64,000 bases of DNA. Origin: Candidatus Microgenomates bacterium (GTDB lineage Bacteria > Patescibacteriota > Microgenomatia > UBA8517 > JACQJR01). The position numbers and the translations under genes are program-made. The stretch lies in the NCBI GenBank assembly GCA_016204995.1, contig JACQJR010000001.1:369132-433131 (forward strand). The letters run 5' to 3'. Shown in pieces: positions 4,296 to 61,580 of this stretch (the stretch's first letter is position 1; each line of letters starts with the position of its first letter). Below the pieces are notes generated by a model. It had not been told where the DNA came from, searched no databases, and saw only the letters and a list, made by a program, of their open reading frames with translations.

Positions 4296-4609
4296 TTTTT
4301 AATCCTGCCCGTCTTTTTGGACTTTTTCTCGCTAGGGAATAAATCAATGGTCTGACCTTTTTTAAGGTAAACTATGGCCTTAACTCGATCTGATAATTTC
4401 TGAAAATTCCTACGATTTCGTACCCGTTTAGTCTTACCAGCGAGTTTTATAGTTCTTACTTTGACCACCTCTACTCCAAAAGTCTCTTCCACAGTTTGGC
4501 TAATCTGATGCTTGTTAGCCGCCCAATCTACTTCAAAAGTAAAGGCGTTTAGATTTTCAACAATTTTAGTTGATTTTTCCGTTAATATTGGTTTGATTAA
4601 AACGTTCAT
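4292..4609 (-). CDS. rplW: 50S ribosomal protein L23
   Basis: 105 aa; position between L4 and L2. Confidence 0.85.
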
Positions 4610-5265
4610 TTATTCTCCTTTTGACCCAAGAAAGTTTTTTTCAAAAGTTCTACCCCCGCTTCAGTGATAACCACTTTAGGATAGATAATTAGCTGATAAG
4701 CATTAATTTGGGAAGCTGGCATCAGTTCTACGCTTGCTATATTCCCCAAACCTCTCGCTAATTTTTCTTCGCCGCCATGCAAAACTAAAACTTTAGTTTT
4801 AGTTAAACCTAATTTATCTAACCATTTTTGCGCGGTTTTAGTTTTTCCCTCCAAGGCCGTTGCTTTAACCACTATTAAGTCTTTACTTGCCAGTTTTTCT
4901 GACAAGGCGACAGTTGTGGCTTGACGAGCCAGCCTCTTAGATAAACTCAACTGACGTTTTAGACCAGTTGGGCCATGAGCAATGCCGCCGCCGACAAAAA
5001 TAGGGGCTTTTTTCATGCCATGTCTGGCCCGGCCAGTTCCCTTTTGACGAAACATTTTAGCCGTGGTGCCAACTATTTCAGCTCTGGTTTTCACCTTATG
5101 GGTACCCTTGTGTTGTCTATCCTGATAAACATAGAAAGCCTGGGCCAGTAATTTATCATTTGGTTTCTGGCCAAATAACTCGTCAGGCAAAGACAATTTG
5201 GCAGCAGTTTTTCCTGTAGTTGGCCCCGATTTAATCGGGGTTGGTTGTATAATTATCTGTTTCAT
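4606..5265 (-). CDS. rplD: 50S ribosomal protein L4 (coding sequence contains a copy of the 17-bp palindrome CCCCGATTTAATCGGGG)
   Basis: 219 aa; L4-like; position between L3 and L23; palindrome at 5224-5240 encodes PIKSG near the N-terminus. Confidence 0.88.
   Translation of the reverse strand: MKQIIIQPTPIKSGPTTGKTAAKLSLPDELFGQKPNDKLLAQAFYVYQDRQHKGTHKVKTRAEIVGTTAKMFRQKGTGRARHGMKKAPIFVGGGIAHGPTGLKRQLSLSKRLARQATTVALSEKLASKDLIVVKATALEGKTKTAQKWLDKLGLTKTKVLVLHGGEEKLARGLGNIASVELMPASQINAYQLIIYPKVVITEAGVELLKKTFLGQKENK
5224..5240. repeat. 17-bp palindrome CCCCGATTTAATCGGGG, copy 1 of 4 (others at 6231-6247, 26712-26727 and 26921-26937 with 1-2 mismatches)
   Basis: a 13-bp core CCGATTTAATCGG would not be expected even once by chance in 64 kb; three copies lie within coding sequence and encode PIKSG or PLKSE. 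Confidence 0.8.
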
Positions 5266-6050: not shown

Positions 6051-6083
6051 ACTTGTTTGTTTTTCCTGTTAGGGAAAAGAGAT

Positions 6084-6108
6084 GGAGAAAAACCGTAGGT
6101 TTGTCTCC
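6084..6108 (-). promoter_or_regulatory. 10-bp-stem hairpin in the rplC leader
   Basis: GGAGAAAAAC-CGTAG-GTTTGTCTCC, 9 of 10 pairs, about 30 nt upstream of the rplC ATG. Confidence 0.35.
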
Positions 6109-6110
6109 AA

Positions 6111-6137
6111 GCACAAAAATGGGTGCTCGCCGCACCC
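6111..6137 (-). terminator. rho-independent terminator after the crp/fnr-family gene
   Basis: minus strand GGGTGCGGCGAGCACCC followed by ATTTTTGTG. Confidence 0.55.
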
Positions 6138-6252
6138 TAAATGTGGAGTGTCAGACCGAACACACTTTTCAGGAAGTAACGAACTCTTCCATTAACAATA
6201 AGTATATCAAAAAGAAGCTAATATGGCAAGCTCCGATTTAATCGGAGTAAGC

Positions 6253-6909
6253 TCAATATTCGCTCAAGGATTCTTTCGCCAGATCTGCCAGATTATTGAC
6301 TGCGGGCAGATGCTTCTGGAAAGAAATTAAACCTTTCTTTTCCAGCTTTGATAATTCAAGGCTGGTAGTTTCCCGAGTCACTCCTGCCAGACTGGCGATA
6401 TCTTGATGGGTGAGCGGCAACTGAATCACTACCTTATTGCCTTCTTTTTGCCCGAACTTTTCCGCGCAGATTAAAATCATGGAGGCAACTTTAGCGTAAG
6501 CATCTCCAAAGGCCAGATATTCCATTCGCCGCAGAGCAAATCTAAACCGATCATTAACTTGTTGACTGACTATTCTAAATACTGCTGTATTTTGATAAGC
6601 AAAGTCTATGAATTGTTTTTTATCCGCCCGTTTGAGTTCCACAGGCGTTAAAGCTTCGCTGTAATAAAGACTGGGCCCTCCCCCGGCCAAGACCAGAGCG
6701 GCCGGAAAGACATCACCTGCTTGGTAAATTAATAAGGTCAATTCTTTGCCTTCTGCGGAAAGTGAATAAAGCCTCACATAACCTTTTTCCAGTAAATAAA
6801 TACCGGCGGGGGGGTCGCCAGCGCGAAGAATGGTTTCTCCTTTTTTGTAGGTTATTTTTCTGAACTGGCTAAAAAAATTCTCTAGCGCGGAAGGGACTAT
6901 ATTACTCAC
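6253..6909 (-). CDS. Crp/Fnr-family transcriptional regulator (cNMP-binding domain plus C-terminal HTH)
   Basis: 218 aa; beta-roll-like region GETILRAGDPPAGIYLLEKGYVRLY and C-terminal HTH QDIASLAGVTRETTSLELSKLEKKGLI; inserted between rpsJ and rplC. Confidence 0.75.
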   Translation of the reverse strand: MSNIVPSALENFFSQFRKITYKKGETILRAGDPPAGIYLLEKGYVRLYSLSAEGKELTLLIYQAGDVFPAALVLAGGGPSLYYSEALTPVELKRADKKQFIDFAYQNTAVFRIVSQQVNDRFRFALRRMEYLAFGDAYAKVASMILICAEKFGQKEGNKVVIQLPLTHQDIASLAGVTRETTSLELSKLEKKGLISFQKHLPAVNNLADLAKESLSEY

Positions 6910-8792: not shown

Positions 8793-10958
8793 TTAACTTT
8801 TCTTAGCGCTAATTATTTTCTCGGCAATGTTATTGGGCACTTCTTCATAATGAGATGGTTCAACATAGGGATTGGCCCGGCCTTGAGTCAGCGAACGCAA
8901 AGTAGTAGTGTAGCCGGAAATTTCAGCTAGTGGCACTCGAGCCAGCACAATGGTAGAATTACCCCGTTTTTCCGTCCCTAAAATTTGGGCCCGGCGGGAA
9001 GATAAATCACCAATCACATCACCCATAAATTCTTCCGGCGTAGTCACTTCTACTTTCATAATTGGTTCCAAGAGTACTAAACCGGCTTTGCGGGCCGCAT
9101 CCTGTACTGCCATAGAGCCGGCAATTTTAAAAGCAATTTCCGAAGAGTCAACATCATGATAAGTTCCGTCAAAGACCGTCACTGACAAATCAACTACCGG
9201 GTAGCCTGCTAAAATGCCATTAGATAAAGCTTCAACCACTCCTTTTTCAATTGGCGGAATAAATTCATTAGGAATGGCACCGCCTTTGATTTTATTAATA
9301 AACTCAAAACCTTCTCCCCGGCCTTTAGGTTCCACTTTTAAGAAACAATGACCATATTGTCCATGGCCGCCGGTTTGGCGAATGTATTTACCTTCGCCTT
9401 CAGCCAAGCCCTTGATAGTCTCCTTATAAGCCACTTCCGGAGAACCAGTGGTCGCCTCCACCCCAAATTCCCGGCGCATCCGATCCACTAGAATTTCCAA
9501 ATGCAGCTCACCCATACCGGAAATAATCGTCTGGCCAGTTTCCGGATTGGAACGAATTCTAAAAGTGGGGTCTTCCTCTGACAATTTGCCCAAGGCTTCA
9601 CCTAATTTTTCCTGGTCGCTTCTGGTTTTAGGCTCAATAGCCAAGGAAATAACTGGATCGGGGAAAGCAATTGATTCTAAAACTAAAGGATAACTGCTAT
9701 CTGCCACTGTATCCCCAGTAACGGTTTCCCGTAAACCGACTGCCGCGACAATTTCTCCCGAGTAGGCTTCGCTGACCAACTCCCTTTGATCGGCATGCAT
9801 CAACACTAAGCGGCTAGTTCTTTCCCGTCTGTTTTTAGTGGTGTTGTAAGTCTCCTGGCCGGCTTTTAAAACACCGGAATAAATTCTTAACCATACTAAC
9901 CTACCCACATGAGGATCGGTTTGCACTTTAAAGGCTAAGGCTGATAAAGGCTCATCATTACCCGGTTTTCTTTCTTCGGTATTACCATTCCATTGACCCG
10001 TCACCGGCGGCAAATCAATCGGCGAAGGCAAATATTCTACGACCGCATCCAGTAATGGCTGAACTCCTTTATTGCGCAAAGATGAACCGCAAAAGGTCGG
10101 AAAGAGTTCGGATTTAATGGTGGCCCGGCGCAAAGCAGACTTTAACTCGTGAGTATCCGGCTCTACTCCCCCCACATACTTTTCCAAAATGCCCTGGTCG
10201 GTTTCGGCAATGGCCTCAATAGTTTGAGCCCTGTATTTTTCCATTTGCGCGACTAATTCTTCCGGCACCTCGGTCTCTGTATAAACTGCGCCTGTATCAA
10301 CTTGTCCTGAGACAGCCGAAGGATCACCTTCCCAAATATAGGCTTTGCGATCTAAAACTGACACAATGCCCCGGAAACTTTGTTCACTGCCAATGGGAAA
10401 GGTTAAAACTACAGGTTTTGCGCCTAATCTCTCGCGAACGGCAGCTAACGTCCCATCAAAGTTAGCTCCTAATTTATCCATTTTATTGACAAAAATAATT
10501 CTTGGGACATGATATTTATCAGCCTGGCGCCAGACTGTTTCAGTTTGCGATTGAACCATTTCTTCCGCATCTAACACCGTAATGCCGCCGTCCAAAACGC
10601 GTAAAGATCGCTCCACTTCAGCCGTAAAATCCACATGGCCCGGAGTATCAATGATGTTAATCCGGTAATTACCATGCTCAACGGAAGAGTCTTGTTTTAA
10701 TTCCCAAAAAGCGGTGATGGCTGCCGACACAATGGTGATACCCCGTTCCCGTTCCTGGGCCATCCAATCGGTAACAGTGGTACCCTCATCAACCGATCCC
10801 AACTTATAAGTCCGGCCGGTGTAAAAAAGAATTCTTTCGGTAGTGGTAGTTTTACCCGCGTCAATATGAGCAATAATACCGATGTTGCGGATTTTATCCA
10901 AAGCCACTTCGCGATTTTTGGTGACTACTTGTGATAGTGATGCTTTTTGCCCGGCCAT
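8793..10958 (-). CDS. fusA: elongation factor G
   Basis: 721 aa; AHIDAGKTTTTERIL, DTPGHVDF G-domain motifs; upstream of tuf. Confidence 0.97.
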   Translation of the reverse strand: MAGQKASLSQVVTKNREVALDKIRNIGIIAHIDAGKTTTTERILFYTGRTYKLGSVDEGTTVTDWMAQERERGITIVSAAITAFWELKQDSSVEHGNYRINIIDTPGHVDFTAEVERSLRVLDGGITVLDAEEMVQSQTETVWRQADKYHVPRIIFVNKMDKLGANFDGTLAAVRERLGAKPVVLTFPIGSEQSFRGIVSVLDRKAYIWEGDPSAVSGQVDTGAVYTETEVPEELVAQMEKYRAQTIEAIAETDQGILEKYVGGVEPDTHELKSALRRATIKSELFPTFCGSSLRNKGVQPLLDAVVEYLPSPIDLPPVTGQWNGNTEERKPGNDEPLSALAFKVQTDPHVGRLVWLRIYSGVLKAGQETYNTTKNRRERTSRLVLMHADQRELVSEAYSGEIVAAVGLRETVTGDTVADSSYPLVLESIAFPDPVISLAIEPKTRSDQEKLGEALGKLSEEDPTFRIRSNPETGQTIISGMGELHLEILVDRMRREFGVEATTGSPEVAYKETIKGLAEGEGKYIRQTGGHGQYGHCFLKVEPKGRGEGFEFINKIKGGAIPNEFIPPIEKGVVEALSNGILAGYPVVDLSVTVFDGTYHDVDSSEIAFKIAGSMAVQDAARKAGLVLLEPIMKVEVTTPEEFMGDVIGDLSSRRAQILGTEKRGNSTIVLARVPLAEISGYTTTLRSLTQGRANPYVEPSHYEEVPNNIAEKIISAKKS

Positions 10959-23202: not shown

Positions 23203-24240
23203 TTACAACAAGTATTTGTCAATGTTCTGTTGATGTTCTTCGGAGTTGGCCGCATAGTGGATTTGGCCGGTATTATCATGCAGATAGAACCAATAAGGAG
23301 AATCTTGGGGACTCGCTGCAGCTTTAATTGAGGACAGTCCAGGACTGGCAATTGGTCCGGGCGGCAAACCGCGATGTAAATAAGTATTGTAAGGAGAATT
23401 TATTTTTTTATCCGCCACTGTGGCTGGTTCCCACCAGGAACAATTTTCGTCCAGATGACGACCAGCCTTTGGCTGGGAGATTTGACCTGCCTGCGCAGGC
23501 AGGCATTTGAGATTGACAACTGCGTACTGCAGTGTCGCATCAGCTTGCAAAGGCCAACCAGCCTTTATTCTTTTCAGTAAAATACCGGCGACAATCGGCC
23601 GCTCCTCATCGGTTCTGGTTTCCCGCTCTATGATGGAAGCCAAGGTTACTAATTTTTCCAAAGTTAAATCTTGTTGCTTGGCTTGGGAAATTATGTCTGC
23701 GGAAACTTTTTTATCAAAAGTATCACGCAGTTTTTTCACCACTGCCCCGGCAGTAGCATTTCTGCTCAACAAATAAGTATCGGGGAAAAGGAAACCTTCC
23801 ATGCCTTGCGACTCTTTCATAAATTCTTTCAAAAAAATCTGCTGTTTTTCTGAAGTTAACTCCAAAGCAGTCGCTATTTTTTGGGCGATTTCTTCCCGGC
23901 GAAAACCTTCCGGAATAGTCACCCATAGAGCCACTGGCCCACGAATTAACTCTGCTACTAATTGAGGTAATGGTAAATTTTTAGTAATTCTAAAATCGCC
24001 GGCCGGGATTTTTTTAGTCCGATCGGCAATGGAAACGTAAACTTTAAAAGCCAAAGAAGAACGAATAAAACCTTGTTTTTCTAACTCATCACCGATTTGA
24101 GAAGCGCTTTCGCCTTTGATAATCACAAAGGGATAGTAAATTTTATCAGTGGAAGGAGCAATGGTAGCATCTCGCCACCACCACATCACGAGTAGGGGCA
24201 AGGCAATGATTATCAGAAGAAATGTAACAAGACGTTTCAT
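23203..24240 (-). CDS. mltG: endolytic murein transglycosylase MltG/YceG family; carries an 18-bp palindromic insertion encoding LPAQAG
   Basis: 345 aa; N-terminal TM; YceG-like core ...GEGFLFPDTYLL...LASIIERET...; synteny alaS...ruvX-small ORF-mltG as in Firmicutes. Confidence 0.85.
   Translation of the reverse strand: MKRLVTFLLIIIALPLLVMWWWRDATIAPSTDKIYYPFVIIKGESASQIGDELEKQGFIRSSLAFKVYVSIADRTKKIPAGDFRITKNLPLPQLVAELIRGPVALWVTIPEGFRREEIAQKIATALELTSEKQQIFLKEFMKESQGMEGFLFPDTYLLSRNATAGAVVKKLRDTFDKKVSADIISQAKQQDLTLEKLVTLASIIERETRTDEERPIVAGILLKRIKAGWPLQADATLQYAVVNLKCLPAQAGQISQPKAGRHLDENCSWWEPATVADKKINSPYNTYLHRGLPPGPIASPGLSSIKAAASPQDSPYWFYLHDNTGQIHYAANSEEHQQNIDKYLL
23486..23503. repeat. 18-bp perfect palindrome CCTGCCTGCGCAGGCAGG (core of the 36-bp element), in-frame in mltG
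   Basis: matches the two 9-bp arms of the 36-bp element without the inner 18 bp; encodes LPAQAG. Confidence 0.8.
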
Positions 24241-24819: not shown

Positions 24820-25505
24820 ATACTTGCCCCCGACTGCATCGGGGCTAACTCCGCTTTCACTATTAGCCGCCGCAAATAAGTTCCCGGCGGCACGCAGGTA
24901 ATTAAAGTCAGGTGGGGTTTATCGTTAGGTTGGGCCAGCACCGAGATTTCGGTCGGCGCCACCTCAAACATCTCTGAAATGACAAAACGATAAGTGATGC
25001 CATCATAGCTAACTATTATTTCATCTCCTTTCGCCAAAGTTGGCAGGGTAGAAAAAATAGATAAATAATTGGTAGGGCTAAAAAACTGCGGCAAAGTAGA
25101 ATGGCCAAAAATGACAGCATTACCCACTCGGCCTGGTATGGCCGTCCCCTTATAATGAATTAAATTTTTACTTAAGTCTTCGCCGGCAATTTCCACTGTC
25201 GCCTGGCTAATTTTTAATTTAGGAATTGATAAAGTATAGTATTTAATTTGAGAATTAGCTTCTGGCCGGTCGGGGAAATCCAAGCTGCCTACAAACCAAT
25301 TGGAAGCCCGAGTTAAATCTACGGGGCTATATTTTTGGCTATTGCTGTCTCCTACCGGAGATAAAAATTTAGAATCACTATCGCCCCGACTAAAGTTAGG
25401 GGCAGTAAACAATTCGTATGAAATAATAGGGAAAACGGCGCTGGTTAACACCAAGCCTCCCCCGATAATTAAAAAAATAGCCAATAACCGAAGCCAAAAC
25501 ATCAT
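24816..25505 (-). CDS. sortase-family transpeptidase
   Basis: 229 aa; N-terminal TM anchor; catalytic His (VIFGHS), TLITC cysteine motif, downstream Arg (RRLIV). Confidence 0.75.
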   Translation of the reverse strand: MMFWLRLLAIFLIIGGGLVLTSAVFPIISYELFTAPNFSRGDSDSKFLSPVGDSNSQKYSPVDLTRASNWFVGSLDFPDRPEANSQIKYYTLSIPKLKISQATVEIAGEDLSKNLIHYKGTAIPGRVGNAVIFGHSTLPQFFSPTNYLSIFSTLPTLAKGDEIIVSYDGITYRFVISEMFEVAPTEISVLAQPNDKPHLTLITCVPPGTYLRRLIVKAELAPMQSGASI

Positions 25506-27715
25506 TGTTCGGCAACCACCTTAATGGTAATGTTGTCGCTTTTTTGAGGCAGAAAATCGGACAGAAATGGCAAACGGGGAGAAAATTTAATGGAAGTACG
25601 AGAATAGCCTGGTAAAGCAGCCAGTTTTGTCTTAACCTCCGATTGGCTTTTACCAGCCAGTTGCGAAACCAGCTGTCTTTGATTAATCTGCGGCAGTAAA
25701 TTAGCTTGCGCTGTCACATTAATAGTCAGCACCTTATTTTTTTCTTTTTTCTCACCTGTCTGGCTAATGGAACTAAAACTAGCTGCTATATCACCCTCTT
25801 CTAAATTAAACTTCTCTGGCACTTTGGGACGCAAAACAGTTAATAGCTGGCTGTTTAACTGATCATGCGGTATGGTTACTGCTATTCCTTCCGCTTCTAG
25901 GTTTAACTTCAAGGTTTGTGCTTCCTCACCGACATTATGAGAAAATGAACGTCGCACAATGTTCATTTGGATTGATTCATTAATGACTGTTTCATCGCCA
26001 CTAACCTTCTGTCTAATATCTGTCTTAAATTTGTCGGTCAGTTCTGCCAACAGGTCTGTTTCCAGTTTTTGTCTATCTTCTTTGGCCACAGCCGGTACTT
26101 CTCGCGAGCTGCCGCCGGTAAAAACATTATCGTTTTTGGCAGCAAAACTATTGGTGGAAAAATTAGTGATCGCAAAACTATTGCCAGAGGCTAAATTGTA
26201 TTGGGTACCAATATCAGCCGCACTAATTACGGCTTTGGCTTGGCCTAGCACAATGTTGGGCAAAATGCCAGAGGCGGAGGCCACCGTCACCTGACTATCA
26301 AGACTGAACTTTAAACCGTTAGGACCAACTAAAATGGTATGAGCGGGAAAAGTTTTGGGCTGGGCGGTGTTATTGAAAATTATGACCTCTCCTTTGGCCC
26401 GATCTCCCACAGTTTTAGAACCGGTAGTGGAAGTAGTCTTTTCACCTTCCACGGTAGAAGAAATGGTCCGGCCGGCCACAATACCATCTCCGCTCCCACC
26501 AGTGGGATCAACCTGCAAAGTCAATTTTTCCTCAATTTTTTTAGGAGCAATATAAATAGTGAGCTGGGCCTTGGGTACAAAATACCACACTAAAGTAAAA
26601 ACTAAAATCGTTAATCCCCCTAAAATTAACCATATCTTCAACTTGCCTAAAAACCCACTTTTAGCAGAAACCGCATTAAAGAGGGAATTTAGTTTGGAAC
26701 CGGTCTCCGATCCTGATTTAATCGGGGCAGGCCCGCCTGCACCAACAGGCCTGTCTGCGCCAGCAGGCTCCACCACTTCCTCGTGGGTTTCCTGGAAACC
26801 GAAATCTTCTACTGGTGGTGTGACAGCAACTGGCAATTGCGGCTCTGGAGTCACTGAAGAAACCTTTTCCGTAGCAATTTCTTCCTCTACTACTGGTCTC
26901 CGGCCCTGGAAGGTCTCTGGCTCCGATTTAAGCGGGGCTGGTTCTGTCGCAGTGGTTAATTCCGGTTGAACCGGGGCTTCAGTGGAAGCAGCGACTGAAA
27001 TAGCGGATAATAACTCGTCCGATGTCAATCTTTCAATCCTGGGAGTATGCAGGAAAAAGGCCGAAGGCCATTCCCAGTTAACTAAATTTTGCCGTGCCTC
27101 CTCCAACTCGTTATTATTTCTGTTGTATAAAACTAACCGCGCAGGCAGTGATTCTCCGACGCCAAAACGGGATAAGCCCTCGGTAATATCATCTGCCAGC
27201 GATATACTGCGGCTGACCAGATGGGAATTAACAATTTTACCCGATCTAACCAATAACACTTCCGCTTCCTCTTCTTCAATACCAACTAAAATGGCCGAAA
27301 GGGGTGAGCCTTCTTTGTTTTTCAAAAAATGAATAATCGCTTCCGGTACTACCACAAAGCCTTTAGGTTTAAGTTCTAATTTTTCGCACAAGAGACGCAG
27401 GTGGGCCAGTTTTTCAGGAACAATATTACCATCTTCTATCCAGAAATTAGGCAAGCCAAAAACTACTGATAAAATTTCCTCCGGCGGCTCATTCATACTA
27501 CCTACTGCGGCTGATAAACTGTCATCAGCCGCCTGGACAAAAGATTCACTGTCCTGCCAAGCATCAGTCGTGCCGGCTGCCATTAATTCACCCTGACCGG
27601 ATAGAGTACGCCACAAACCGGCCTGAATCCAATTTTTACCAATCACAAAGGAAACAAATACTTCTTGCGGAGTTTCTTTTTTACCAATAATTTCCGTAAT
27701 GCTGGGCAATTTCAT
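25502..27715 (-). CDS. bitopic membrane protein: N-terminal cytoplasmic FtsA/PilM-like actin-fold domain, Pro-rich linker carrying repeat-element insertions, TM helix, large extracytoplasmic domain
   Basis: 737 aa; N-terminal region resembles PilM/FtsA subdomains (VFVSFVIGKNWIQAG..., AILVGIEEEEAEVLLVRSGKIV); TM KIWLILGGLTILVFTLVWYFV; the linker contains PAGADRPVGAG and PIKSG encoded by the palindromic elements. Confidence 0.5.
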   Translation of the reverse strand: MKLPSITEIIGKKETPQEVFVSFVIGKNWIQAGLWRTLSGQGELMAAGTTDAWQDSESFVQAADDSLSAAVGSMNEPPEEILSVVFGLPNFWIEDGNIVPEKLAHLRLLCEKLELKPKGFVVVPEAIIHFLKNKEGSPLSAILVGIEEEEAEVLLVRSGKIVNSHLVSRSISLADDITEGLSRFGVGESLPARLVLYNRNNNELEEARQNLVNWEWPSAFFLHTPRIERLTSDELLSAISVAASTEAPVQPELTTATEPAPLKSEPETFQGRRPVVEEEIATEKVSSVTPEPQLPVAVTPPVEDFGFQETHEEVVEPAGADRPVGAGGPAPIKSGSETGSKLNSLFNAVSAKSGFLGKLKIWLILGGLTILVFTLVWYFVPKAQLTIYIAPKKIEEKLTLQVDPTGGSGDGIVAGRTISSTVEGEKTTSTTGSKTVGDRAKGEVIIFNNTAQPKTFPAHTILVGPNGLKFSLDSQVTVASASGILPNIVLGQAKAVISAADIGTQYNLASGNSFAITNFSTNSFAAKNDNVFTGGSSREVPAVAKEDRQKLETDLLAELTDKFKTDIRQKVSGDETVINESIQMNIVRRSFSHNVGEEAQTLKLNLEAEGIAVTIPHDQLNSQLLTVLRPKVPEKFNLEEGDIAASFSSISQTGEKKEKNKVLTINVTAQANLLPQINQRQLVSQLAGKSQSEVKTKLAALPGYSRTSIKFSPRLPFLSDFLPQKSDNITIKVVAEQ
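26741..26781. repeat. degenerate copy of the 36-bp element in the linker of the 737-aa membrane protein gene
   Basis: GCAGGCCCGCCTGCACCAACAGGCCTGTCTGCGCCAGCAGGC shares TGTCTGCGCCAGCAGGC with the element; encodes EPAGADRPVGAG in the same relative frame. Confidence 0.6.
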
Positions 27716-36730: not shown

Positions 36731-37797
36731 GCTGGCAGATACTCCTTAATGTTACTTTCCGTAAGTTGCACTTGACTAGTTTTTCCCTCTACTATCAGTT
36801 TAGCTACTTTTCGCACAATTGCCTCAATGGTTCTTTCTAAAGTTCTCATCCCTGCATCATAACCTAATGGTCGCACAATTATCGGCCAGACGGAATCGGC
36901 AATTTGGACAGCTTGGGAATTAAGACCGGCTTCTGTTAAAGTCCGAGGCAATAAAAATTTACTGCCAATCACGATTTTTTCGCTATCGGTATAAGAGGGC
37001 ATGGGAATTACTTCCAACCGATCAAGGACGGCTGTCGCGATATTATTAGTATTATTGGCTGTCGCAATAAATAGAGCTTCTGATAAATCAAATGGGTAAT
37101 CAAGATAGCTATCAAAAAAAGCCACGTTTTGCTCCGGATCTAAAATTTCAACTAGTGCCCCCATAATAGAAGCCCGTGAGGTTTGTTCCACCCGATCAAT
37201 CTCGTCCAACAGTATCACCGGATTTTTGGCACCACTCCGAATTAAAGCTTTCATAATTTGGCCTGGTTCTGCTACCATGTCAAAACGAGGCCGACCCCGT
37301 AGCATCGCCACCTCTCCTAAACCGCCAAAGGGAATTCTGACAAAATTTCTACCTAAGGCCTGGCTAATTGATTTGGCAATCGTGGTTTTACCAGTACCGA
37401 CTAAACCGACGAAACATAAAATCGGCGCCCGCAGGGAATGATTACCTGCCTGCGCAGGCTTGTCTGCGCCAGCAGGCAGGTCTCCTTTTTCTTTTTTCAA
37501 TTTCATCACGGCCATATATTCCAAGACGCGTTCTTTCAAATCGTTTAGACCATAATGATTACTATCTAAAATTTGTTTAGCGTGGGTTAAATCCAGGGTG
37601 TCTGGCGTTCTTTTCTCCCAGGGTAAAGTTGTAACTACATCAATATATTCATCAAGTCTTTCGCGTTCAGTAAAAGGCATTTCGGAAGAGCTAAAGCGGG
37701 AGAGGTAATTATTAATCAGGTCAGCTAAATCACCCGGCAAAGAAGCTTGTTTAACTTTCTCGGAAAGCTTAGTTAATTCATCCGTTGGGACAGGCAT
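36727..37797 (-). CDS. Lon-like AAA+ ATPase module without N-terminal substrate domain or C-terminal S16 protease domain; carries a 36-bp in-frame palindromic insertion before Walker A
   Basis: 356 aa; HYGLNDLKERVLEYMAV, ILCFVGLVGTGKTT, VILLDEIDRV, EILDPEQN and YDAGMRTLER motifs typical of the Lon AAA+ domain; stop overlaps the rnj start (ATGA). Confidence 0.75.
   Translation of the reverse strand: MPVPTDELTKLSEKVKQASLPGDLADLINNYLSRFSSSEMPFTERERLDEYIDVVTTLPWEKRTPDTLDLTHAKQILDSNHYGLNDLKERVLEYMAVMKLKKEKGDLPAGADKPAQAGNHSLRAPILCFVGLVGTGKTTIAKSISQALGRNFVRIPFGGLGEVAMLRGRPRFDMVAEPGQIMKALIRSGAKNPVILLDEIDRVEQTSRASIMGALVEILDPEQNVAFFDSYLDYPFDLSEALFIATANNTNNIATAVLDRLEVIPMPSYTDSEKIVIGSKFLLPRTLTEAGLNSQAVQIADSVWPIIVRPLGYDAGMRTLERTIEAIVRKVAKLIVEGKTSQVQLTESNIKEYLPA
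37445..37480. repeat. 36-bp palindromic element (CCTGCCTGCGCAGGCTTGTCTGCGCCAGCAGGCAGG) inserted in-frame in the lon-like gene
   Basis: identical to 43062-43097; 9-bp terminal inverted repeats CCTGCCTGC/GCAGGCAGG; encodes LPAGADKPAQAG on the minus strand. Confidence 0.9.
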
Positions 37798-42496: not shown

Positions 42497-43936
42497 TTAC
42501 CTTACGGACTCTAACACATCTCCAATCTGAAAGTCAACAGTACCTGCAAAAATAAGGCCGCATTCTTGACCTTTTTCCACTTTATCCACTGTTTTGTCTG
42601 CTTGTTTCATGGAACTTATCTTAACCTTACCGATAACTTCCCCTTTTCTACTTAAAGTTAAATTATCGCCGCGGGCAATTCGGCCTTCAGCGACACGAAT
42701 TCCGGCAATTTTTTGATTCGCCCCAAAAGGAAATTGAGCAATAATTTCTGCCCTGCCTAAAATTTTAACTTCTTCTGCCACTTCTCCAGCCAAAGCTTTG
42801 GCTATCCAGTCAAAAATTTCATAAATAATGGCAAAAGAGAAAATTTTAACCTTGTCTTCTTCGGCTTGCTGGAGGACTTCTGGCGGGACTTTGACCCCGA
42901 AGGCAATAATGGTAGCGCCAAAAGAACTAGCCAGCGCTACATCGCCGGCAGTCACTTCACCAGTACCGCTAGATAAAACTACTACTTCGCTAGACAATCC
43001 TGCCATTAACGCTTCTAGTCTGCCGGCCGTATCAGCCTTGATAATTAAAGAGAGTTTTGCTCCTGCCTGCGCAGGCTTGTCTGCGCCAGCAGGCAGGCCT
43101 TCTTTAACTTCTTGTTGTTTAACGTTAGCTGATTCCACCTTCACCACCCCACCTTCGCCCGCAAGTTTTACCTGACTGCCGACTGTCGGTACTTTTTCCA
43201 ACCCTAAAATTTGCCCGGCCTGTCCCGGCAACACTGACTCTAAATTTTGGCCTTGATCACCGATTAAAGCCTTAACTTTTCCCACTACTTCACCAGCTGT
43301 AATTTTATCGCCCAAATTAAGCTGTCCATTTCTGACAATGACAGTGGCTAAGGCTCCCTTCCGGCTGTCAAATTGCGATTCAATCACTGTAGCTTCTAAG
43401 ACGGCTTCGCTGTCGCCTTTAATCTCGTGAATTTCACTTACCAAACTAATCATTTCTAGTAAATGAGAAATTCCCTGACCGGTTTTACTGGATACTTCCG
43501 TCACCACAATATCGCCGCCGCGACCCTCCAGAAGAATTCCTTCTTTTTCTAGTTCTTGTTTGACTCGCTCTGGTTGGGCAGTCGGTAAATCAACTTTAGT
43601 TAAAACAACGATAAAAGGCACCTGGGCGGCGCGGATAAATTGCAAAGACTCCCTAGTTTGCGGTTTAACCCCATCATCGGCTGCCACAATTAATAACACA
43701 ATATCAGCCACATTGGCTCCCCGTGAACGCATTTGAGAAAAAGCGGCATGGCCGGGAGTATCTATAAAAGTGATGGGTTGAGAGTTATGAGTTATGAGGT
43801 AAGCGCCGATGTGCTGGGTAATACTGCCTGCTTCCCGAGAGGCTACGTTAGTTTTACGGATCGCGTCTAACAGGGAAGTTTTGCCATGATCAACATGGCC
43901 TAAAACGGCGACAATCGGTGAAAGTGATATATTCAT
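42497..43936 (-). CDS. infB: translation initiation factor IF-2, minimal form starting at the G domain; carries the 36-bp in-frame palindromic insertion
   Basis: 479 aa; [27 protein letters not shown] motifs; C-terminal IF2 beta-barrel; insertion LPAGADKPAQAG in domain II. Confidence 0.9.
   Translation of the reverse strand: MNISLSPIVAVLGHVDHGKTSLLDAIRKTNVASREAGSITQHIGAYLITHNSQPITFIDTPGHAAFSQMRSRGANVADIVLLIVAADDGVKPQTRESLQFIRAAQVPFIVVLTKVDLPTAQPERVKQELEKEGILLEGRGGDIVVTEVSSKTGQGISHLLEMISLVSEIHEIKGDSEAVLEATVIESQFDSRKGALATVIVRNGQLNLGDKITAGEVVGKVKALIGDQGQNLESVLPGQAGQILGLEKVPTVGSQVKLAGEGGVVKVESANVKQQEVKEGLPAGADKPAQAGAKLSLIIKADTAGRLEALMAGLSSEVVVLSSGTGEVTAGDVALASSFGATIIAFGVKVPPEVLQQAEEDKVKIFSFAIIYEIFDWIAKALAGEVAEEVKILGRAEIIAQFPFGANQKIAGIRVAEGRIARGDNLTLSRKGEVIGKVKISSMKQADKTVDKVEKGQECGLIFAGTVDFQIGDVLESVR
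43062..43097. repeat. 36-bp palindromic element, in-frame in infB
   Basis: identical to 37445-37480; same reading frame; encodes LPAGADKPAQAG. Confidence 0.9.
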
Positions 43937-52849: not shown

Positions 52850-53158
52850 ATGCCACAGACAAAATCGGCAAAACGGGCTTTAAGAGCCAGCAAGGACCGG
52901 AGATTAAGAAATGCCAAAATTTCTGCCGGTTATAAAAAGGCCATTAAGCTGGCACGCGCCAAAAATACTCCCAGCCTAATAAGCACTGCATATCAAACAT
53001 TGGATATGGCAGCTAAAATTGGCGTTATTCATTGGAAAAAAGCGGCCCGCCTAAAAAGCCAATTAGCCAAAGCTGGACAAAAGACTCCAAGTTCCACCAC
53101 TCAACCAAAAGTCAAGAAATCTTCTAAGAATGTAAGTTTGAAAAGTATTTTTAACTAA
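52850..53158 (+). CDS. rpsT: 30S ribosomal protein S20; the last 9 codons are supplied by the 94-bp repeat element
   Basis: MPQTKSAKRALRASKDRRLRNAKISAGYKKAIK... S20 signature; C-terminus ...NVSLKSIFN encoded by the repeat starting at 53131. Confidence 0.8.
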   Translation: MPQTKSAKRALRASKDRRLRNAKISAGYKKAIKLARAKNTPSLISTAYQTLDMAAKIGVIHWKKAARLKSQLAKAGQKTPSSTTQPKVKKSSKNVSLKSIFN

Positions 53159-53224
53159 CTTTAGGTTCAATTTTACAAATTTTGATAAATTTTCGAACCT
53201 AAATCATTTTTCAAACTTACACTC
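53131..53224. repeat. 94-bp repeat element copy 1 (internally palindromic, MITE-like); left boundary of the GC-rich insert
   Basis: identical over 94 of 94 bp to 55877-55970; terminal inverted repeats GAGTGTAAGTTTGAAAA / TTTTCAAACTTACACTC and inner AGGTTC...GAACCT. Confidence 0.9.
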
Positions 53225-53395: not shown

Positions 53396-53470
53396 TGGAG
53401 CGGGAGACGGGACTCGAACCCGCGACAGCCTGCTTGGAAGGCAGTCTGTTACGGCCTAGCTAGTCTCCGC
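53396..53470 (-). tRNA. tRNA-Gly(UCC)-like element with non-canonical 5' half (pseudo-tRNA or integration-site remnant)
   Basis: minus-strand reading gives anticodon arm CTGC-CTTCCAA-GCAG (anticodon UCC), T-arm GCGGG-TTCGAGT-CCCGT and 3' end CTCCCGC-T-CCA (Gly-like C70/G71/C72 and U73). The 5' strand GCGGAGA mispairs and there is no canonical D-arm. Confidence 0.3.
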
Positions 53471-55510: not shown

Positions 55511-55876
55511 TCACATGCTTTCAACAGATCCCGGATGTTCCCTGGTCGGCAGTATCTTACCCAATTCGGCAGCGATGTCATTGGTAGTAATATTCAGTTC
55601 GTCGCCAAAGGCACCCACAGTTCTGGCTGCTCTCATAGCAGCCTGACGCGCCCCTGCATTGACAGCTCCGGCGATTTCGGCCGGTGATCGTCCTGCCGCA
55701 ATTTCTACTAGGCGCTCCAGATCGACCAGGTCTGCCCCCGGCTTGCCGCTAAGATGAATTTTCAAGACAAGGCGCCTAGCATCCGGATCAGGTAATCCTA
55801 CTTCGACCTTACTATCGAAGCGGCCCGCGCGGAGCAGTGCCTCATCCAAATCGGACGGACGGTTTGTCGCTGCGAG
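55511..55876 (-). pseudogene. 5'-truncated AAA+ ATPase gene (FtsH/CDC48-type C-terminal fragment) cut at the 94-bp repeat
   Basis: the reading frame runs ...[22 protein letters not shown]... (AAA second region of homology and sensor) with no upstream Walker A or B; the upstream end is replaced by repeat sequence at 55877. Confidence 0.6.
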
Positions 55877-55970
55877 TGTAAGTTTGAAAAGTATTTTTAA
55901 CTAACTTTAGGTTCAATTTTACAAATTTTGATAAATTTTCGAACCTAAATCATTTTTCAAACTTACACTC
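55877..55970. repeat. 94-bp repeat element copy 2 (direct orientation)
   Basis: perfect copy of 53131-53224; flanked on the left by the truncated AAA gene and on the right by the truncated istA. Confidence 0.9.
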
Positions 55971-59950: not shown

Positions 59951-60165
59951 AAAAAACATCTCAACCCAGAATTGTCACTTTTGCCTTGTTAACTACCATT
60001 ACTATGCTCACCTGGGTAACTTTTGAAGTCTGGCATTCTTTTAACAAACCAGCTCCAATCCAAGTGGAACAAAAGCTGCTGGCGCCTCTTAATCCTCAAT
60101 TAGATACTAAAACTATAGAAGAACTACGGGATAAATTATTTTTTGAAGGAGGAGTAAACCCATGA
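59947..60165 (+). CDS. small membrane protein in the pilus-like cluster
   Basis: 72 aa with one TM; translationally coupled to its neighbours by overlaps. Confidence 0.35.
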   Translation: MKKTSQPRIVTFALLTTITMLTWVTFEVWHSFNKPAPIQVEQKLLAPLNPQLDTKTIEELRDKLFFEGGVNP

Positions 60166-61580
60166 GGAAAGAACGGACTATTCCCACCGTCATTGGTCTA
60201 GTGTTACTGCTGGCCGGGGTAGGAATTTCCGTTCTGCTAGTTCAGCGCCAGCAGTTTTTTAAACTAACGGCGGCGCCGGAAATTACCCCCAAAGATGTCA
60301 GAATCACCAATGTAACTGATGGCGGCTTTACTGTTTCCTGGATGACAGACAAAGAAACCATCGGTTTTGTTTCCTTTGGCGATTCCACCTCATTGGGTCA
60401 GATAGCCCAAGATGATCAAGGGACCAAGAGTTCTCCCTTACACCATGTTACCATCTCCAATTTATCTACCAATACTCGCTACTTTTTCAAAATCGGCTCC
60501 GATCGCGACACCTTTGACCAGGATGGGAAGCCGTGGGAGCAAAAAACCGCGACACAACTTTCACCTCGGACAGCCGATGTCATCTCCGGTACTGTCAAAA
60601 ATAGCCAAGGCGCGCCGGCAAGCGACGCTTTAGTCTATGTCACCCTGCCGCAAGCCGCCCCTCTCTCTACCACCACCGATAGTTCCGGTAGTTTTTCTTT
60701 GTCACTGGCCCCTGCCCGCACCACCAATTTATCTTCCTATGTCACCTACGATAAAAATAATGCCCTCTTGTCTATTTTCGTCCAGGCAGGAAGCGGTCAA
60801 GTATCTTCGGCCCAAGTAGCAGCCGCTAGCGCTCACCCTGTCCCGCCTTTAATTTTGGGCCAGACTCATGATTTTCGTCGCTTAAGCCAGACTGGCGAAG
60901 CTACCTCTCCCGGCGCTGATTTAGCCTTACCATCGGCAGCGCCGACTGCTTCGCCCGAAAGCGCCAGCTCGGGTTTTAATTTAAACCCGATTGCTTCCAG
61001 CTCGCCCGCACCCTCGGTAGATAAACTAACTATTGATAATCCCAAAGAGGGAGAAAATATCAGCACTAAAACTCCGGAGTTTCGTGGTCAGGGTCCTAAA
61101 GGCGTTAAAGTTAACTTAACTCTTAACTCCACTACCCCCATCACCGGTACCGCCACAGTAGCCGCAAATGGCACTTGGACCTGGACGCCGCCCCAAACCT
61201 TAACTACCGGTAGTCACATCCTAATTGCCACTCTTACCGATAGCAAAGGTCAAAAACAAACCACTTCGCGCAATTTTAGCGTCTTAGCCAAAGCGGCTAA
61301 TTTACCAGCTTTTACCGCCACCGGTTCGGCTCAAGCCAGCCCCGGTCCAACCGGGGCCAGTCCCAGTGCCACGCCTCGCGTTACTGCTAGTCCTTCTGCT
61401 TCACCTCGAGCTAGTATTATACCCACTGTGGCCCCTCGCATCTCTATGCCTTCTACCGAATCTGGGGTACCCGTTTCTGGCGACTTGACAAATACTATTG
61501 CAGTTTTCATACTGGGTATAACCTCCATTTTTGGAGGGGCTCTCTTGTTCATAAAAACAAGAGGGAATAATTACCAATAA
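60162..61580 (+). CDS. cell-surface protein: N-terminal signal anchor, FN3-like domain, carboxypeptidase-regulatory-like domain, Thr/Ser/Pro-rich spacers, C-terminal TM plus basic tail (sortase-substrate-like architecture)
   Basis: 472 aa; VRITNVTDGGFTVSWMTDKETIGFVSFG (FN3/purple-acid-phosphatase N-terminal-like); ISGTVKNSQGAPASDALVYV (CarboxypepD_reg-like); C-terminus ...VPVSGDLTNTIAVFILGITSIFGGALLFIKTRGNNYQ. Confidence 0.55.
   Translation: MRKERTIPTVIGLVLLLAGVGISVLLVQRQQFFKLTAAPEITPKDVRITNVTDGGFTVSWMTDKETIGFVSFGDSTSLGQIAQDDQGTKSSPLHHVTISNLSTNTRYFFKIGSDRDTFDQDGKPWEQKTATQLSPRTADVISGTVKNSQGAPASDALVYVTLPQAAPLSTTTDSSGSFSLSLAPARTTNLSSYVTYDKNNALLSIFVQAGSGQVSSAQVAAASAHPVPPLILGQTHDFRRLSQTGEATSPGADLALPSAAPTASPESASSGFNLNPIASSSPAPSVDKLTIDNPKEGENISTKTPEFRGQGPKGVKVNLTLNSTTPITGTATVAANGTWTWTPPQTLTTGSHILIATLTDSKGQKQTTSRNFSVLAKAANLPAFTATGSAQASPGPTGASPSATPRVTASPSASPRASIIPTVAPRISMPSTESGVPVSGDLTNTIAVFILGITSIFGGALLFIKTRGNNYQ

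Follow-up and report, generated by a model that had tools for sequence, protein, structure and literature searches.

A 17-bp palindrome flanked by 4-bp target duplications, a probable very small mobile element of Patescibacteria

Short non-coding repeats of several kinds have been described in bacteria. Bacterial MITEs are generally shorter than 200 bp, with some near 400 bp, carry a core between their repeats and are sometimes fused in frame to genes (PMC3184786). Rickettsia palindromic elements (RPEs) span ~105-146 bp, and REPs, at 21-65 bp, are among the smallest bacterial repeats (PMC3184786). According to a passage of PMC3733652, REPs bear a GTAG or CGTC tag at one hairpin end. The SDRs are short mobile elements, one of which, SDR5, inserts into HIP1, and none have been found outside Nostocaceae (PMC5861425). 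Excision footprints are mentioned in PMC4561436.

Here, we describe a palindrome of only 17 bp in a Candidatus Microgenomates genome. We consider it probable (about 0.8) that each copy arose when a very small mobile element, non-coding and consisting of this palindrome, inserted and duplicated 4 bp of its target. No description of such an element was found in the literature when searched by keyword and for the 17-mer and its variants.

Copies in the window

The window, by which we mean the whole 64,000-nt stretch of the Microgenomates genome that was analysed, holds six copies or candidate copies (Table 1). The original prediction had named four of them, and the sequence confirms the palindrome at 5224, 6231, 26711 and 26921 as exact CCCCGATTTAATCGGGG or close variants, with the correction that the linker copy given as 26712-26727 begins at 26711. 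These four are real, but two further candidates had been missed: 61340, a likely member of the family, and 24828, whose kinship is doubtful. On the coding strand, here the minus strand, each of the four copies first named reads ...GATTAAATC..., and the three that lie in genes (5224, 26711 and 26921) share one frame, encoding TPIKSG, APIKSG and APLKSE. Of the six copies in the window, four or five are inside long ORFs, and four are flanked by a 4-nt direct repeat (CCAA, CCAG, CCAG and CTTA/CTTG), the two without it being 26711 and 24828. The density in the source genome is about 4-6 copies in 76 kb, which comprise the window and about 12 kb beyond it.

Table 1. Copies of the palindrome in the window and the genes that carry them
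Feature	Position	With repeats or flanks	Strand	Sequence or description
rplD copy	5224-5240	5220..5244	-	CCCCGATTTAATCGGGG, exact, intact
Non-coding copy	6231-6247	6227..6251	-	CTCCGATTTAATCGGAG; 13-nt core exact
Decayed linker copy, 737-aa gene	26711-26727	26707..26731	-	TCCTGATTTAATCGGGG
Decayed linker copy, 737-aa gene	26921-26937	26917..26941	-	CTCCGATTTAAGCGGGG
Likely family member	61340-61356	61336..61360	+	CCAG-CCCCGGTCCAACCGGGG-CCAG
Doubtful relative	24828-24844		-	CCCCGATGCAGTCGGGG (CCCCGACTGCATCGGGG), APMQSG at sortase gene C-terminus
Host rplD	4606..5265		-	Ribosomal protein L4, 219 aa
Host 737-aa gene	25502..27715		-	Baseplate-J-like protein, conserved in Microgenomates
Host 472-aa gene	60162..61580		+	Surface protein with Ig-like and CarboxypepD_reg domains

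The individual copies differ in their state of preservation. On the minus strand, the rplD copy reads CCAA-CCCCGATTAAATCGGGG-CCAA. The non-coding copy at 6231 reads CTTA-CTCCGATTAAATCGGAG-CTTG, its flanking repeat matching at 3/4 positions; it starts 6 nt past the stop codon of a Crp/Fnr gene, abuts a promoter-like site for rplC and lies upstream of a separate terminator-like hairpin at 6121-6137. Its variant form, CTCCGAT...ATCGGAG, is also found in other genomes (locus L090, and nested in L107). Both linker copies lie in the 737-aa protein, whose relatives match the Baseplate_J family (PF04865) and whose linker (approximately residues 245-345) is hypervariable, with length and sequence varying greatly among orthologues. 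The copy at 26921 reads CCAG-CCCCGCTTAAATCGGAG-CCAG on the minus strand and encodes APLKSEP; its 4-nt repeat is exact, and removal of 21 nt leaves ...TEPETF... still in frame. The copy at 26711, CCCCGATTAAATCAGGA, encodes APIKSGS with two mismatches to the 17-mer and is flanked by CCTG and TCGG, the repeat being no longer present. The copy at 61340 carries symmetric changes in both arms and encodes SPGPTGA in a Ser/Pro-rich linker of the 472-aa Ig-like surface protein; besides it, the rplD copy is the sole 17-nt palindrome of the window that has an exact 4-nt repeat at its flanks. The 24828 sequence shares the frame and the 6-bp ends of the other copies, but because it lacks a flanking repeat, its membership in the family is doubtful.

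The original prediction regarded the 737-aa linker as a landing pad for small palindromic repeats. This is reasonable in that the linker holds two copies and a degenerate 36-bp element (26736-26771), but the pattern speaks of tolerance and not of targeting. The 36-bp element is 8 bp from the 26711 copy instead of the 15 bp once given; no flanking duplication was found when it was checked for one, and it probably belongs to a different family.

The family exceeds what base composition would produce. The 13-mer core with up to two mismatches has 12 strand-matches in the window, whereas 100 dinucleotide shuffles averaged 1.96 and never exceeded 7. For the 17-mer with up to three mismatches, the window has 11 matches, whereas shuffled sequence averaged 0.37 and reached 4 at most. 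The rarity of the 13-mer had earlier been offered as an argument in itself. One duplicated 13-mer is unsurprising in 64 kb, where arithmetic predicts ~60 identical 13-mer pairs by chance and 359 13-mers are repeated within the window. The real evidence is the four-fold family, its extent of 17-27 nt and the flanking duplications, and not a single 13-mer repeat.

A role as an RNA hairpin had also been suggested. The sequence can indeed fold, intact copies having folding energies of -7.8 to -11.9 kcal/mol, but there is no sign of an RNA function. The hairpin of the 26711 copy reaches only -1.9 kcal/mol, both linker copies having lost most of their stability. An Rfam search of the window returned no match.

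Insertion with a 4-bp duplication at filled and empty sites

Comparison of filled with empty sites reveals the copies as insertions. In rplD, the insertion spans 21 nt and contributes (T)PIKSGP(T), residues 9-15 of L4, opposite a 7-residue gap in every aligned L4 relative. Whether relatives lack PIKSG had been raised by the original prediction as a check, and the insertion is indeed absent in 35/35, so that PIKSG is not a conserved coding motif of L4. Deletion of the 21 nt restores MKQIIIQPTTGK, and solved L4 structures align with a 7-residue offset. At protein level, a 7-residue gap also appears between LeuRS and solved structures, and AtpA shows one of 14 residues. The filled atpA site reads AAC CAA A(CC CCG ATT AAA TCG GGG CAA A)AA GAC, with the insertion in parentheses and present also in a second orthologue, while the empty sites of relatives up to 93% identical read AAT CAA AAA GAT and AAT CAG AAG GAT. 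The two filled orthologues are only 83% identical, yet a closer one is empty, a pattern that requires recurrent insertion or precise loss. For tRNA-His, a 5' fragment with the filled site, GCTCAG(17-mer+TCAG)TTGG, is followed 9 nt downstream by an intact gene with the empty site, GCTCAGTTGG.

A scan of public genomes for the exact 17-mer gave at least 121 copies, and the figures that follow refer to the matches listed. An exact 4-nt direct repeat lies directly outside 19 of the 121, where 0.47 would be expected by chance. The same comparison at offsets of 1-8 gave 0-2, which makes sequence context an unlikely source of the repeats, and the repeat extends to 5 nt in one copy only. Among the 849 17-nt palindromes in the DNA of the listed matches, 33 have 4-nt repeats (offset controls, 1-6), and 24 of these 33 come from the present family. 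The duplicated flanks vary (TCAA, TTGA, TCAG, CCAA and others), with a clear target preference: at 24 sites, the four positions are Y in 24/24, Y in 20/24, R in 24/24 and R in 24/24, giving Y-Y-R-R. A duplication is recognizable in only 19-32 of the 121 listed exact copies. Many of the undecorated ones, from other phyla, either act as ordinary terminators (AAAAG...CTTTTT) or belong to longer palindromes. The element is not defined by its sequence alone. More than 240 copies share the conserved arms CCCCGAT(T) and (A)ATCGGGG, and variants occur with perfect arm symmetry, namely CTCCGAT..ATCGGAG, GTCCGAT..ATCGGAC and CCCCGGT..ACCGGGG. Insertions are nested in four loci (L107, L099, L179 and L180), and other carrier contigs hold ~1 extra copy per 100 kb.

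Metagenomes were searched with the pattern TCAA-CCCCGA-N5-TCGGGG-TCAA (20 fixed bases), and TCAA-flanked copies were found in >120 contigs, many of them in frame in housekeeping genes, with atpA, leuS, ileS and gyrB among the hosts. The centres TTAAA (33) and TTTAA (24) are both common among the listed matches, so both orientations are used, and across listed copies with perfect 8-bp arms, the centre base is A, T, G or C in 33, 24, 13 and 8 cases. ORFs of at least 150 codons hold 37 of the 113 unique listed copies, and all four stop-free frames are used.

The duplication-flanked copies are restricted to Patescibacteria-type genomes. Outside the window, 19 such copies are listed, of which 12 carry the title Patescibacteria and seven the title 'uncultured Gammaproteobacteria', and among the matches listed, none occurs in 56 stretches from other phyla. 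In the one 'Gammaproteobacteria' MAG that was checked, AtpA is 88-93% identical to Daviesbacteria proteins, and by this sequence measure the MAG looks like Daviesbacteria. Viral contigs gave 31 single matches without clustering, estimated to be consistent with chance, and a viral origin was rejected on that basis.

Proposed mechanism and alternative explanations

In the proposed element, a variable centre separates two arms of 7-8 bp, CCCCGAT(T) and (A)ATCGGGG. Its target is symmetric (Y-Y-R-R, mostly TCAA/TTGA) and would be opened by a cut with a 4-bp stagger, so that 4 bp of the target end up doubled, one copy on each side. With 17 bp of element and 4 bp of duplication, each event adds 21 bp and hence exactly 7 codons. 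Stop codons are absent from four of the six combinations of frame and orientation, so that an insertion into a gene adds a short loop (such as TPIKSG, PRLNRG or DPDLIG) and the frame stays intact. This length is probably what lets the element persist inside genes, among them essential ones such as rplD. In genomes that are ~95% coding, copies would persist where seven residues are tolerated, at termini, in surface loops and inter-domain linkers, or in short non-coding gaps.

The element presumably moves in trans, by means of an enzyme that makes 4-bp staggered cuts, and we favor a DDE-type transposase that would act on the arms as minimal terminal inverted repeats. To our knowledge, 17 bp is shorter than any element known to be moved by a transposase. 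Because this is below the size of known transposase substrates, mobility as a free-standing unit is a point that we infer. More tentatively, and at odds slightly short of even, the copies may represent an undescribed class of mobile DNA, the smallest known self-contained transposable unit, spread through Patescibacteria and moved by an enzyme not recognized as a transposase, possibly an accompanying small nuclease.

The fixed arms and the free centre base could also be read as scars. If a larger transposon of the cut-and-paste type, bounded by CCCCGATT...AATCGGGG and duplicating 4 bp, inserted and later excised, it might leave both copies of the duplication and, between them, ~8 bp from either end plus one filler base. 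Tc1/mariner-type elements leave palindromic footprints built of inverted-repeat tips, and constant arms around a centre base that can be any of A, T, G and C are the outcome expected from end-joining repair; such an origin would also explain the apparent 'movement' of so short a sequence. However, the parent is missing from the DNA in which it was sought. Ends of the form CCCGATT/AATCGGG, and next those of the form CCCCGA/TCGGGG, were paired over distances of up to 4-5 kb with a 4-bp duplication required, and no longer element with matching ends came to light in 1.69 Mb around the copies. The search yielded only tandem copies, one 25-nt variant (at two loci) and two isolated long pairs, one of 1.2 kb and one of 4.5 kb, which appeared to be chance events. 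Nor is there a surplus of lone CCCCGAT ends, with 158 present where about 207 would be expected, and no recurrent transposase family was found among 1744 ORFs from 240 carrier loci, where all-against-all clustering gave housekeeping families only. In addition, cleavage and repair would have to be unusually uniform to give a fixed 17 bp hundreds of times over. We therefore regard excision footprints as an unlikely source of the copies. In the same loci, a small metallopeptidase family seemed enriched and was rejected as a linked gene, as there were only two unique contexts with the element in the gene.

A route without a DDE enzyme, in which a single-stranded DNA hairpin or an RNA intermediate is inserted at staggered nicks made by a small nuclease such as a GIY-YIG enzyme, appears less probable again. 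It would easily account for the perfect arm symmetry of the variants if one arm templates the other or if the hairpin is required. It also draws on tRNA fragments: 20 of the 122 listed TCAA-flanked copies lie in the D-loop of 5' tRNA fragments, 15 of these 20 are directly upstream of a GIY-YIG ORF, and some of the sites were hit twice (L179, L180). No tRNA gene with a D-loop insert is intact after removal of 21 nt, all being 5' fragments, which disposes of intact tRNA genes as hosts. The association can be explained without a causal link, since the D-loop sequence GCTCAA/GCTCAG includes the favored target and an insertion into a dead fragment would be neutral. GIY-YIG genes elsewhere in carrier loci have no adjoining element, a GIY-YIG motif search of the window found none, and the enzyme as a general partner was dropped because the link is real only in the tRNA-fragment context. 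Furthermore, the 4-nt duplication here is at odds with characterized GIY-YIG homing enzymes, which mostly leave 2-nt overhangs, as stated for SegB in a passage of PMC2330249.

It is highly improbable that the copies are selected host sequence, be it a P-I-K-S-G protein motif, a Crp/Fnr site, an uptake sequence or a terminator hairpin, although several observations point that way: three of the window copies are read in a single frame and give similar peptides, one copy adjoins the Crp/Fnr gene and, in other phyla, the 17-mer serves as a terminator stem between A-runs and T-runs. Against host function, even synonymous positions are identical between copies, and the 4-bp duplications and the filled and empty sites mark insertion. 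A conserved protein motif fails on its absence from L4 relatives, and elsewhere, three other frames are read or the copies are outside genes. No window copy is followed by a T-run, and a terminator scan near 6231 picks the separate hairpin at 6121-6137. The adjacency to the Crp/Fnr gene looks coincidental, other copies being intragenic and the 6231 copy having its own 3/4 flanking repeat. DNA uptake sequences are very dense and roughly evenly spaced, ~one per kb, and are without insertion signatures; here, 4-6 copies per 76 kb, and ~1 extra per 100 kb elsewhere, are far too few, and the insertion signature is present. The earlier suggestion of an uptake or recognition site thus gives way to insertion, in view of the sparse copies, their flanking duplications and their absence at orthologous sites. 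The selfish repeat, which the original prediction had listed as a further option, is supported and can be made specific: a palindrome of 17 bp inserts and duplicates 4 bp of its target.

Significance and comparison with known elements

Should a palindrome of 17 bp be mobile, transposable units could be far smaller than MITEs and REPs. Some enzyme would then recognize little beyond two 7-8-bp arms, and its identification becomes a concrete, testable question. CPR genomes are tiny and ~95% coding, and they are considered to hold few mobile elements; a 7-codon insertion shows how selfish DNA may persist in them. It offers an explanation for some of the lineage-specific short inserts in CPR ribosomal proteins, synthetases and ATP synthase. 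The 21-bp insertions provide clean presence/absence markers of strain and lineage history and mark protein positions that tolerate seven extra residues; they can also mislead alignment, annotation and binning.

Among known systems, the element resembles MITEs in being non-coding, with terminal inverted repeats, a target duplication of fixed length, empty and filled sites, hairpin potential and, at times, in-frame fusion to genes. It differs from them in its length of 17 bp, in a centre of 1-3 bp that leaves essentially no core, and in that no parent insertion sequence with matching ends lies within the 1.69 Mb around the copies. REPs and REPINs are likewise short, GC-rich, palindromic and multi-copy, but REPs are extragenic, tagged and without target duplication, whereas the present element is often intragenic, is untagged and has a 4-bp duplication. 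REPs and REPINs go with RAYTs, which are IS200-like tyrosine transposases; no gene recurs near the present copies. A further lead is offered by piggyBac/IS1380-type elements, which duplicate 4 bp of a symmetric TTAA and have termini starting CCC...GGG. TTAA fits Y-Y-R-R, while the targets here are mostly TCAA/TTGA/TCAG, and neither the window nor the surroundings of the copies yielded a transposase of this type.

The SDRs may be similar in their short length, hairpin potential and nesting, all of which the present element shows. In an account by Elhai from 2008 (Genome Res 18:1484), they are reportedly 21-27 nt long, predicted to form hairpins, mobile since species diverged and nested within one another. 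They differ in belonging to a cyanobacterial lineage and not to Patescibacteria, and, as far as we know, their sequences are unrelated to the present element and they lack a 4-bp Y-Y-R-R duplication. The mobile GC clusters and short palindromes of organelles (yeast mitochondria, Volvox) are short GC-rich palindromes in AT-rich genomes, with short flanking duplications and an occasional place in coding sequence; they are usually 30-50 bp long, and their sequences differ from that of the present element. Lastly, like the Rickettsia palindromic elements (Ogata et al. 2000), the present element is palindromic selfish DNA that enters housekeeping genes of a reduced genome in frame and at tolerated positions, with in-frame insertions in the protein-coding genes rplD, atpA, leuS, ileS and gyrB. 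We know of no defined 4-bp duplication as an RPE hallmark. RPEs add tens of residues to a protein, whereas the present element, 17 bp long and 21 bp with its duplication, adds exactly seven.

Palindrome copies in the window and their flanks

The window has a G+C content of 43% and is ~95% coding, with most genes on the minus strand, and it includes the S10/spc ribosomal protein operon. Re-reading of the sequence agrees with the four palindrome sites of the original prediction, and two further candidates are listed with them in the table. At up to three mismatches, the palindrome family is well above chance in the window, with 11 strand-matches where 100 shuffles averaged 0.37. The excess first claimed thus holds for the family, while the reasoning from a single 13-mer is weak alone because 64 kb holds many chance-repeated 13-mers. 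The coding copies at 5224, 26711, and 26921 share a common frame, and no further copies were found in the 12 kb flanking the window.

Palindromic elements and other features of the window
Feature	Position	Sequence	Flanks (left / right)	Context or product
Palindrome copy, rplD	5224	CCCCGATTAAATCGGGG (minus-strand reading)	CCAA / CCAA	TPIKSG; L4 N-terminal segment
Palindrome copy	6231	CTCCGATTAAATCGGAG (minus-strand reading)	CTTA / CTTG	3' untranslated gap
Palindrome copy	26711	CCCCGATTAAATCAGGA (minus-strand reading)	no 4-nt repeat	APIKSG; hypervariable linker, baseplate-J-like protein (737-aa gene)
Palindrome copy	26921	CCCCGCTTAAATCGGAG (minus-strand reading)	CCAG / CCAG	APLKSE; same linker
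Additional candidate copy	61340-61356	CCCCGGTCCAACCGGGG	CCAG / CCAG	Ser/Pro-rich linker, 472-aa Ig-like surface protein
Additional candidate copy	24828-24844	CCCCGATGCAGTCGGGG	no 4-nt repeat	possibly sortase C-terminus
Second GC-rich palindromic element	37445-37480; 43062-43097	CCTGCCTGCGCAGGCTTGTCTGCGCCAGCAGGCAGG		LPAGADKPAQAG in frame; Lon-like AAA ATPase (before AAA domain) and IF2 (between domains)
Degenerate copy of second element	26736-26771			737-aa gene linker
18-bp core of second element	23486-23503			YceG/MltG
97-nt repeats	53128-53224; 55874-55970			inverted repeat within each
tRNA-Gly(UCC), ARAGORN	53396-53470			between the 97-nt repeats
IS21-type genes	56093-57758			truncated rve/Mu-transposase-C ORF; IstB
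Crp/Fnr-family regulator gene	6253-6909			between rpsJ and rplC, inside S10 operon
rplC leader features	6121-6137; 6201-6229	GGGTGCGGCGAGCACCC (hairpin)		promoter-like site; terminator-like hairpin, then T-run
rplC-leader 39-nt stretch	6071-6109			79% complementary to 2167-2205, near start of ORF 1753-2220

When the L4 protein of the window is aligned with its best 35 relatives, it is the only one with a seven-residue addition, MKQIIIQPT[PIKSGPT]TGK, and alignment with solved structures gives a seven-residue offset in the N-terminal segment. At the DNA level, the rplD 17-mer lies between two CCAA tetranucleotides, and removal of the palindrome with one CCAA (21 nt) gives back MKQIIIQPTTGK. The palindrome copies are insertions that duplicated 4 bp of target, a signature that those beyond rplD display to differing extents. 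Those at 26711 and 24828, with flanks that show no 4-nt repeat when compared, are the most decayed or doubtful of the window set.

Other repeats and hairpins are also present. In the closest relatives, the part of the L4 gene that encodes the C-terminal tail has hairpins of its own (locus L003, 1074-1094; locus L001, ~10656-10674), one of which, CTCCCGACTTTCAGTCGGGAG, forms a perfect 9-bp stem and encodes TPDFQSGD, while CCCAGCTTTGAAAAGTGGG encodes NPALKSGE; both are without flanking duplication. The same is true of the window copies of the second GC-rich element, whose two full copies are 100% identical, and an orthologue of the 737-aa gene (L280, 792-822) has a related 31-nt perfect palindrome, encoding EGLPAGQAGLP, at a different position. 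The 97-nt repeats are 99% identical and bracket the tRNA-Gly and several small ORFs; with IS21-type genes adjoining, this segment may be mobile or rearranged. In the closest relatives, a small DUF5652 gene occupies the Crp/Fnr position. The 39-nt stretch of the rplC leader and its partner at 2167-2205 may represent a leader or regulatory motif common to both sites. Rfam at gathering thresholds gave no match across positions 1-64000, the tRNA-Gly included.

Duplicated targets and filled, empty, and nested sites

The exact 17-mer was searched in public genomes, one per species, giving at least 120 matches listed; 121 copies were analysed. In 19 of these, the palindrome is directly flanked by a perfect 4-nt direct repeat (0.47 expected), and in 13 more by one with a single mismatch. 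Since comparison of left and right flanks at offsets of 1-8 gave only 0-2 matches and a 5-nt repeat was found at one copy only among the 121 listed, the duplication is exactly 4 bp. All 17-nt palindromes in the same DNA (n = 849) include 33 with 4-nt flanking repeats (offset controls, 1-6); 24 of the 33 belong to the 17-mer family, and the remainder are mostly AT-rich low-complexity sequence. The insertion target is symmetric, with a consensus from 24 sites of Y (24/24), Y (20/24), R (24/24), and R (24/24), and with G favoured directly before it and C directly after.

Filled and empty forms can be seen directly in atpA. The filled site of locus L050 reads AAC CAA A[CC CCG ATT AAA TCG GGG CAA A]AA GAC, with the same insertion in L281, and the empty site reads AAT CAG AAG GAT in an orthologue of 93% protein identity and AAT CAA AAA GAT in another. 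Locus L083 features a filled tRNA-His 5' fragment, GCTCAG[CCCCGATTAAATCGGGGTCAG]TTGG, and, 9 nt downstream, an intact tRNA-His gene with GCTCAGTTGG. Against solved structures, LeuRS is longer by exactly 7 residues in L093, and AtpA by 14 in L050, where the insertion given above is joined by a second palindrome-coded one. Insertions can also be nested: in L107, TTGA is followed by CTCCGATTCAA, the 17-mer with TCAA, TCGGAG, and TTGA, so that one flanked copy holds a second copy in its loop. A similar nesting is present in L099, and L179 and L180 each have two consecutive insertions.

The AtpA loop after the Walker-A helix (columns 200-260 of A4, the Microgenomates AtpA alignment; ~nt 2390-2470 of L050) is variable among orthologues of 80-93% identity, with no, one, or several inserts such as TPIKSGQ, SPRGGAG, SPRSAGGAG, and longer ones of up to ~35 residues. 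In our reading, the SPRSAGGAG insert of L050 overlaps an 18-nt DNA palindrome. Another AtpA protein, P0220, has an insert of similar kind, SPRGEAG, in a different loop.

Abundance, gene context, and carriers

A metagenome scan with the pattern TCAA-CCCCGA-N5-TCGGGG-TCAA, a sample selected on the single target TCAA, returned at least 120 matches, few of which are expected by chance in our estimate because 20 bases are fixed. By contig name, many are Hainich-aquifer assemblies ('Hain-') and many others JGI 'Ga...' contigs. The centres among the matches listed are TTAAA (33), TTTAA (24), TTGAA (13), TTCAA (8), TTAGA (7), and TTTTA (6), with fewer of each remaining centre, indicating conserved 7-8-bp arms, a variable centre, and insertion into the target in either orientation. 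Arm symmetry is kept in variants elsewhere (CTCCGAT..ATCGGAG, GTCCGAT..ATCGGAC, CCCCGGT..ACCGGGG). Copy density is low, at 7 extra strict copies in 750 kb of carrier contigs, yet still ~80 times chance by our arithmetic.

Identified host genes include atpA, leuS, ileS, gyrB (N-terminus), and rplD. Among the matches listed, 37 of 113 unique metagenome copies are within ORFs of at least 150 codons, and the genic copies listed use all four stop-free frames (TPIxSG 14, PR[LF][ND]RG 11, [DN]PDxIGV 12). For carrier genomes that we take to be ~90% coding, the one measured figure being the window's 95%, a share of about one third in such ORFs, with shorter genes uncounted, would be consistent with purifying selection against most genic insertions.

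The D-loop (GCTCAA|YGG) of 5' tRNA fragments holds 20 of the 122 TCAA-flanked copies among the matches listed. A small GIY-YIG ORF lies within 200 nt after 15 of these 20 listed fragments, and an intact tRNA gene, mostly tRNA-Lys, follows 17; for none of the TCAA-flanked matches listed does removal of the insert leave an intact tRNA. Most simply, the preferred target lies within the D-loop, and insertions can be kept only by dead tRNA fragments. A causal role of the GIY-YIG nuclease is a lead rather than an established result; GIY-YIG genes elsewhere in these loci have no element beside them, and the window gave no GIY-YIG hit in a motif search.

A recurrent metagenome cassette (L189, L206, L213, L216, L231, L237, L243, L246, L248, L259, L214) has a 5' tRNA fragment (acceptor strand and D-arm), a GIY-YIG ORF of ~73-98 aa, and an intact tRNA-Lys, tRNA-Arg, or tRNA-His, in that order. 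The 3' end of the ORF overruns into the next gene in several cassettes (e.g., L189), and L216 has the cassette in tandem. The arrangement resembles that of T4 SegB, where a homing-endonuclease gene stands free within a tRNA cluster (PMC2330249).

Carriers were assigned to taxa by record title. Beyond the window, the duplication-flanked copies listed (n = 19) come from Patescibacteria (12) and 'uncultured Gammaproteobacteria' MAGs (7), and none was found in the 56 listed stretches from other phyla. There, the 17-mer mostly serves as a terminator stem (AAAAG...CTTTTT) or belongs to a longer palindrome, and these look like independent occurrences of an easily forming hairpin. The label of the one Gammaproteobacteria MAG checked (contigs CAYQAW0100000xx; L050, L059, L078) is doubtful because its AtpA is 88-93% identical to Candidatus Daviesbacteria/Microgenomates proteins. 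Patescibacteria may be the only hosts of the element.

Possible mobilization and known small repeats

From these sequence comparisons, we infer that the 17-bp element is mobile. A symmetric target that is duplicated over exactly 4 bp and entered in either orientation is what a dimeric transposase-like enzyme classically leaves when it makes staggered cuts, and this combination favours mobilization in trans, in which the two arms would serve as minimal terminal inverted repeats. Among the ORFs of the carrier loci, no transposase was found repeatedly beside the copies. Pfam comparison of ten window ORFs gave transposase genes of the IS21 type only, and IS21 ends differ from those of the element. 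In the main rival reading, the 17-mers would be footprints left by excision of a longer element with these ends; none with the same ends was seen around the copies. A hairpin- or nuclease-based insertion route is another possibility.

Several known systems offer comparison. PiggyBac/IS1380-type elements have CCC...GGG tips and a 4-bp TTAA duplication that is compatible with Y-Y-R-R; tips and duplication are alike, which is a resemblance only. The element is like a MITE in its inverted repeats, duplication, and empty sites, but it falls outside the size and core definition and is without a known parent. RPEs also live in frame inside genes, although they are six- to eight-fold longer, while REPs share its size and palindromy but are extragenic, tagged, and without duplication. 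The closest precedent known to us comes from Nostocaceae, whose 'very small mobile repeated elements' of 21-27 nt were reportedly described by Elhai and colleagues in 2008 and are cited in PMC5861425. Because neither the sequence of the 17-bp element nor a description of one like it was found in the searchable literature, which excludes most subscription journals, the element is placed with the known very small mobile palindromic repeats as an undescribed variant, with a fair chance that identification of its enzyme will show it to be a new class.
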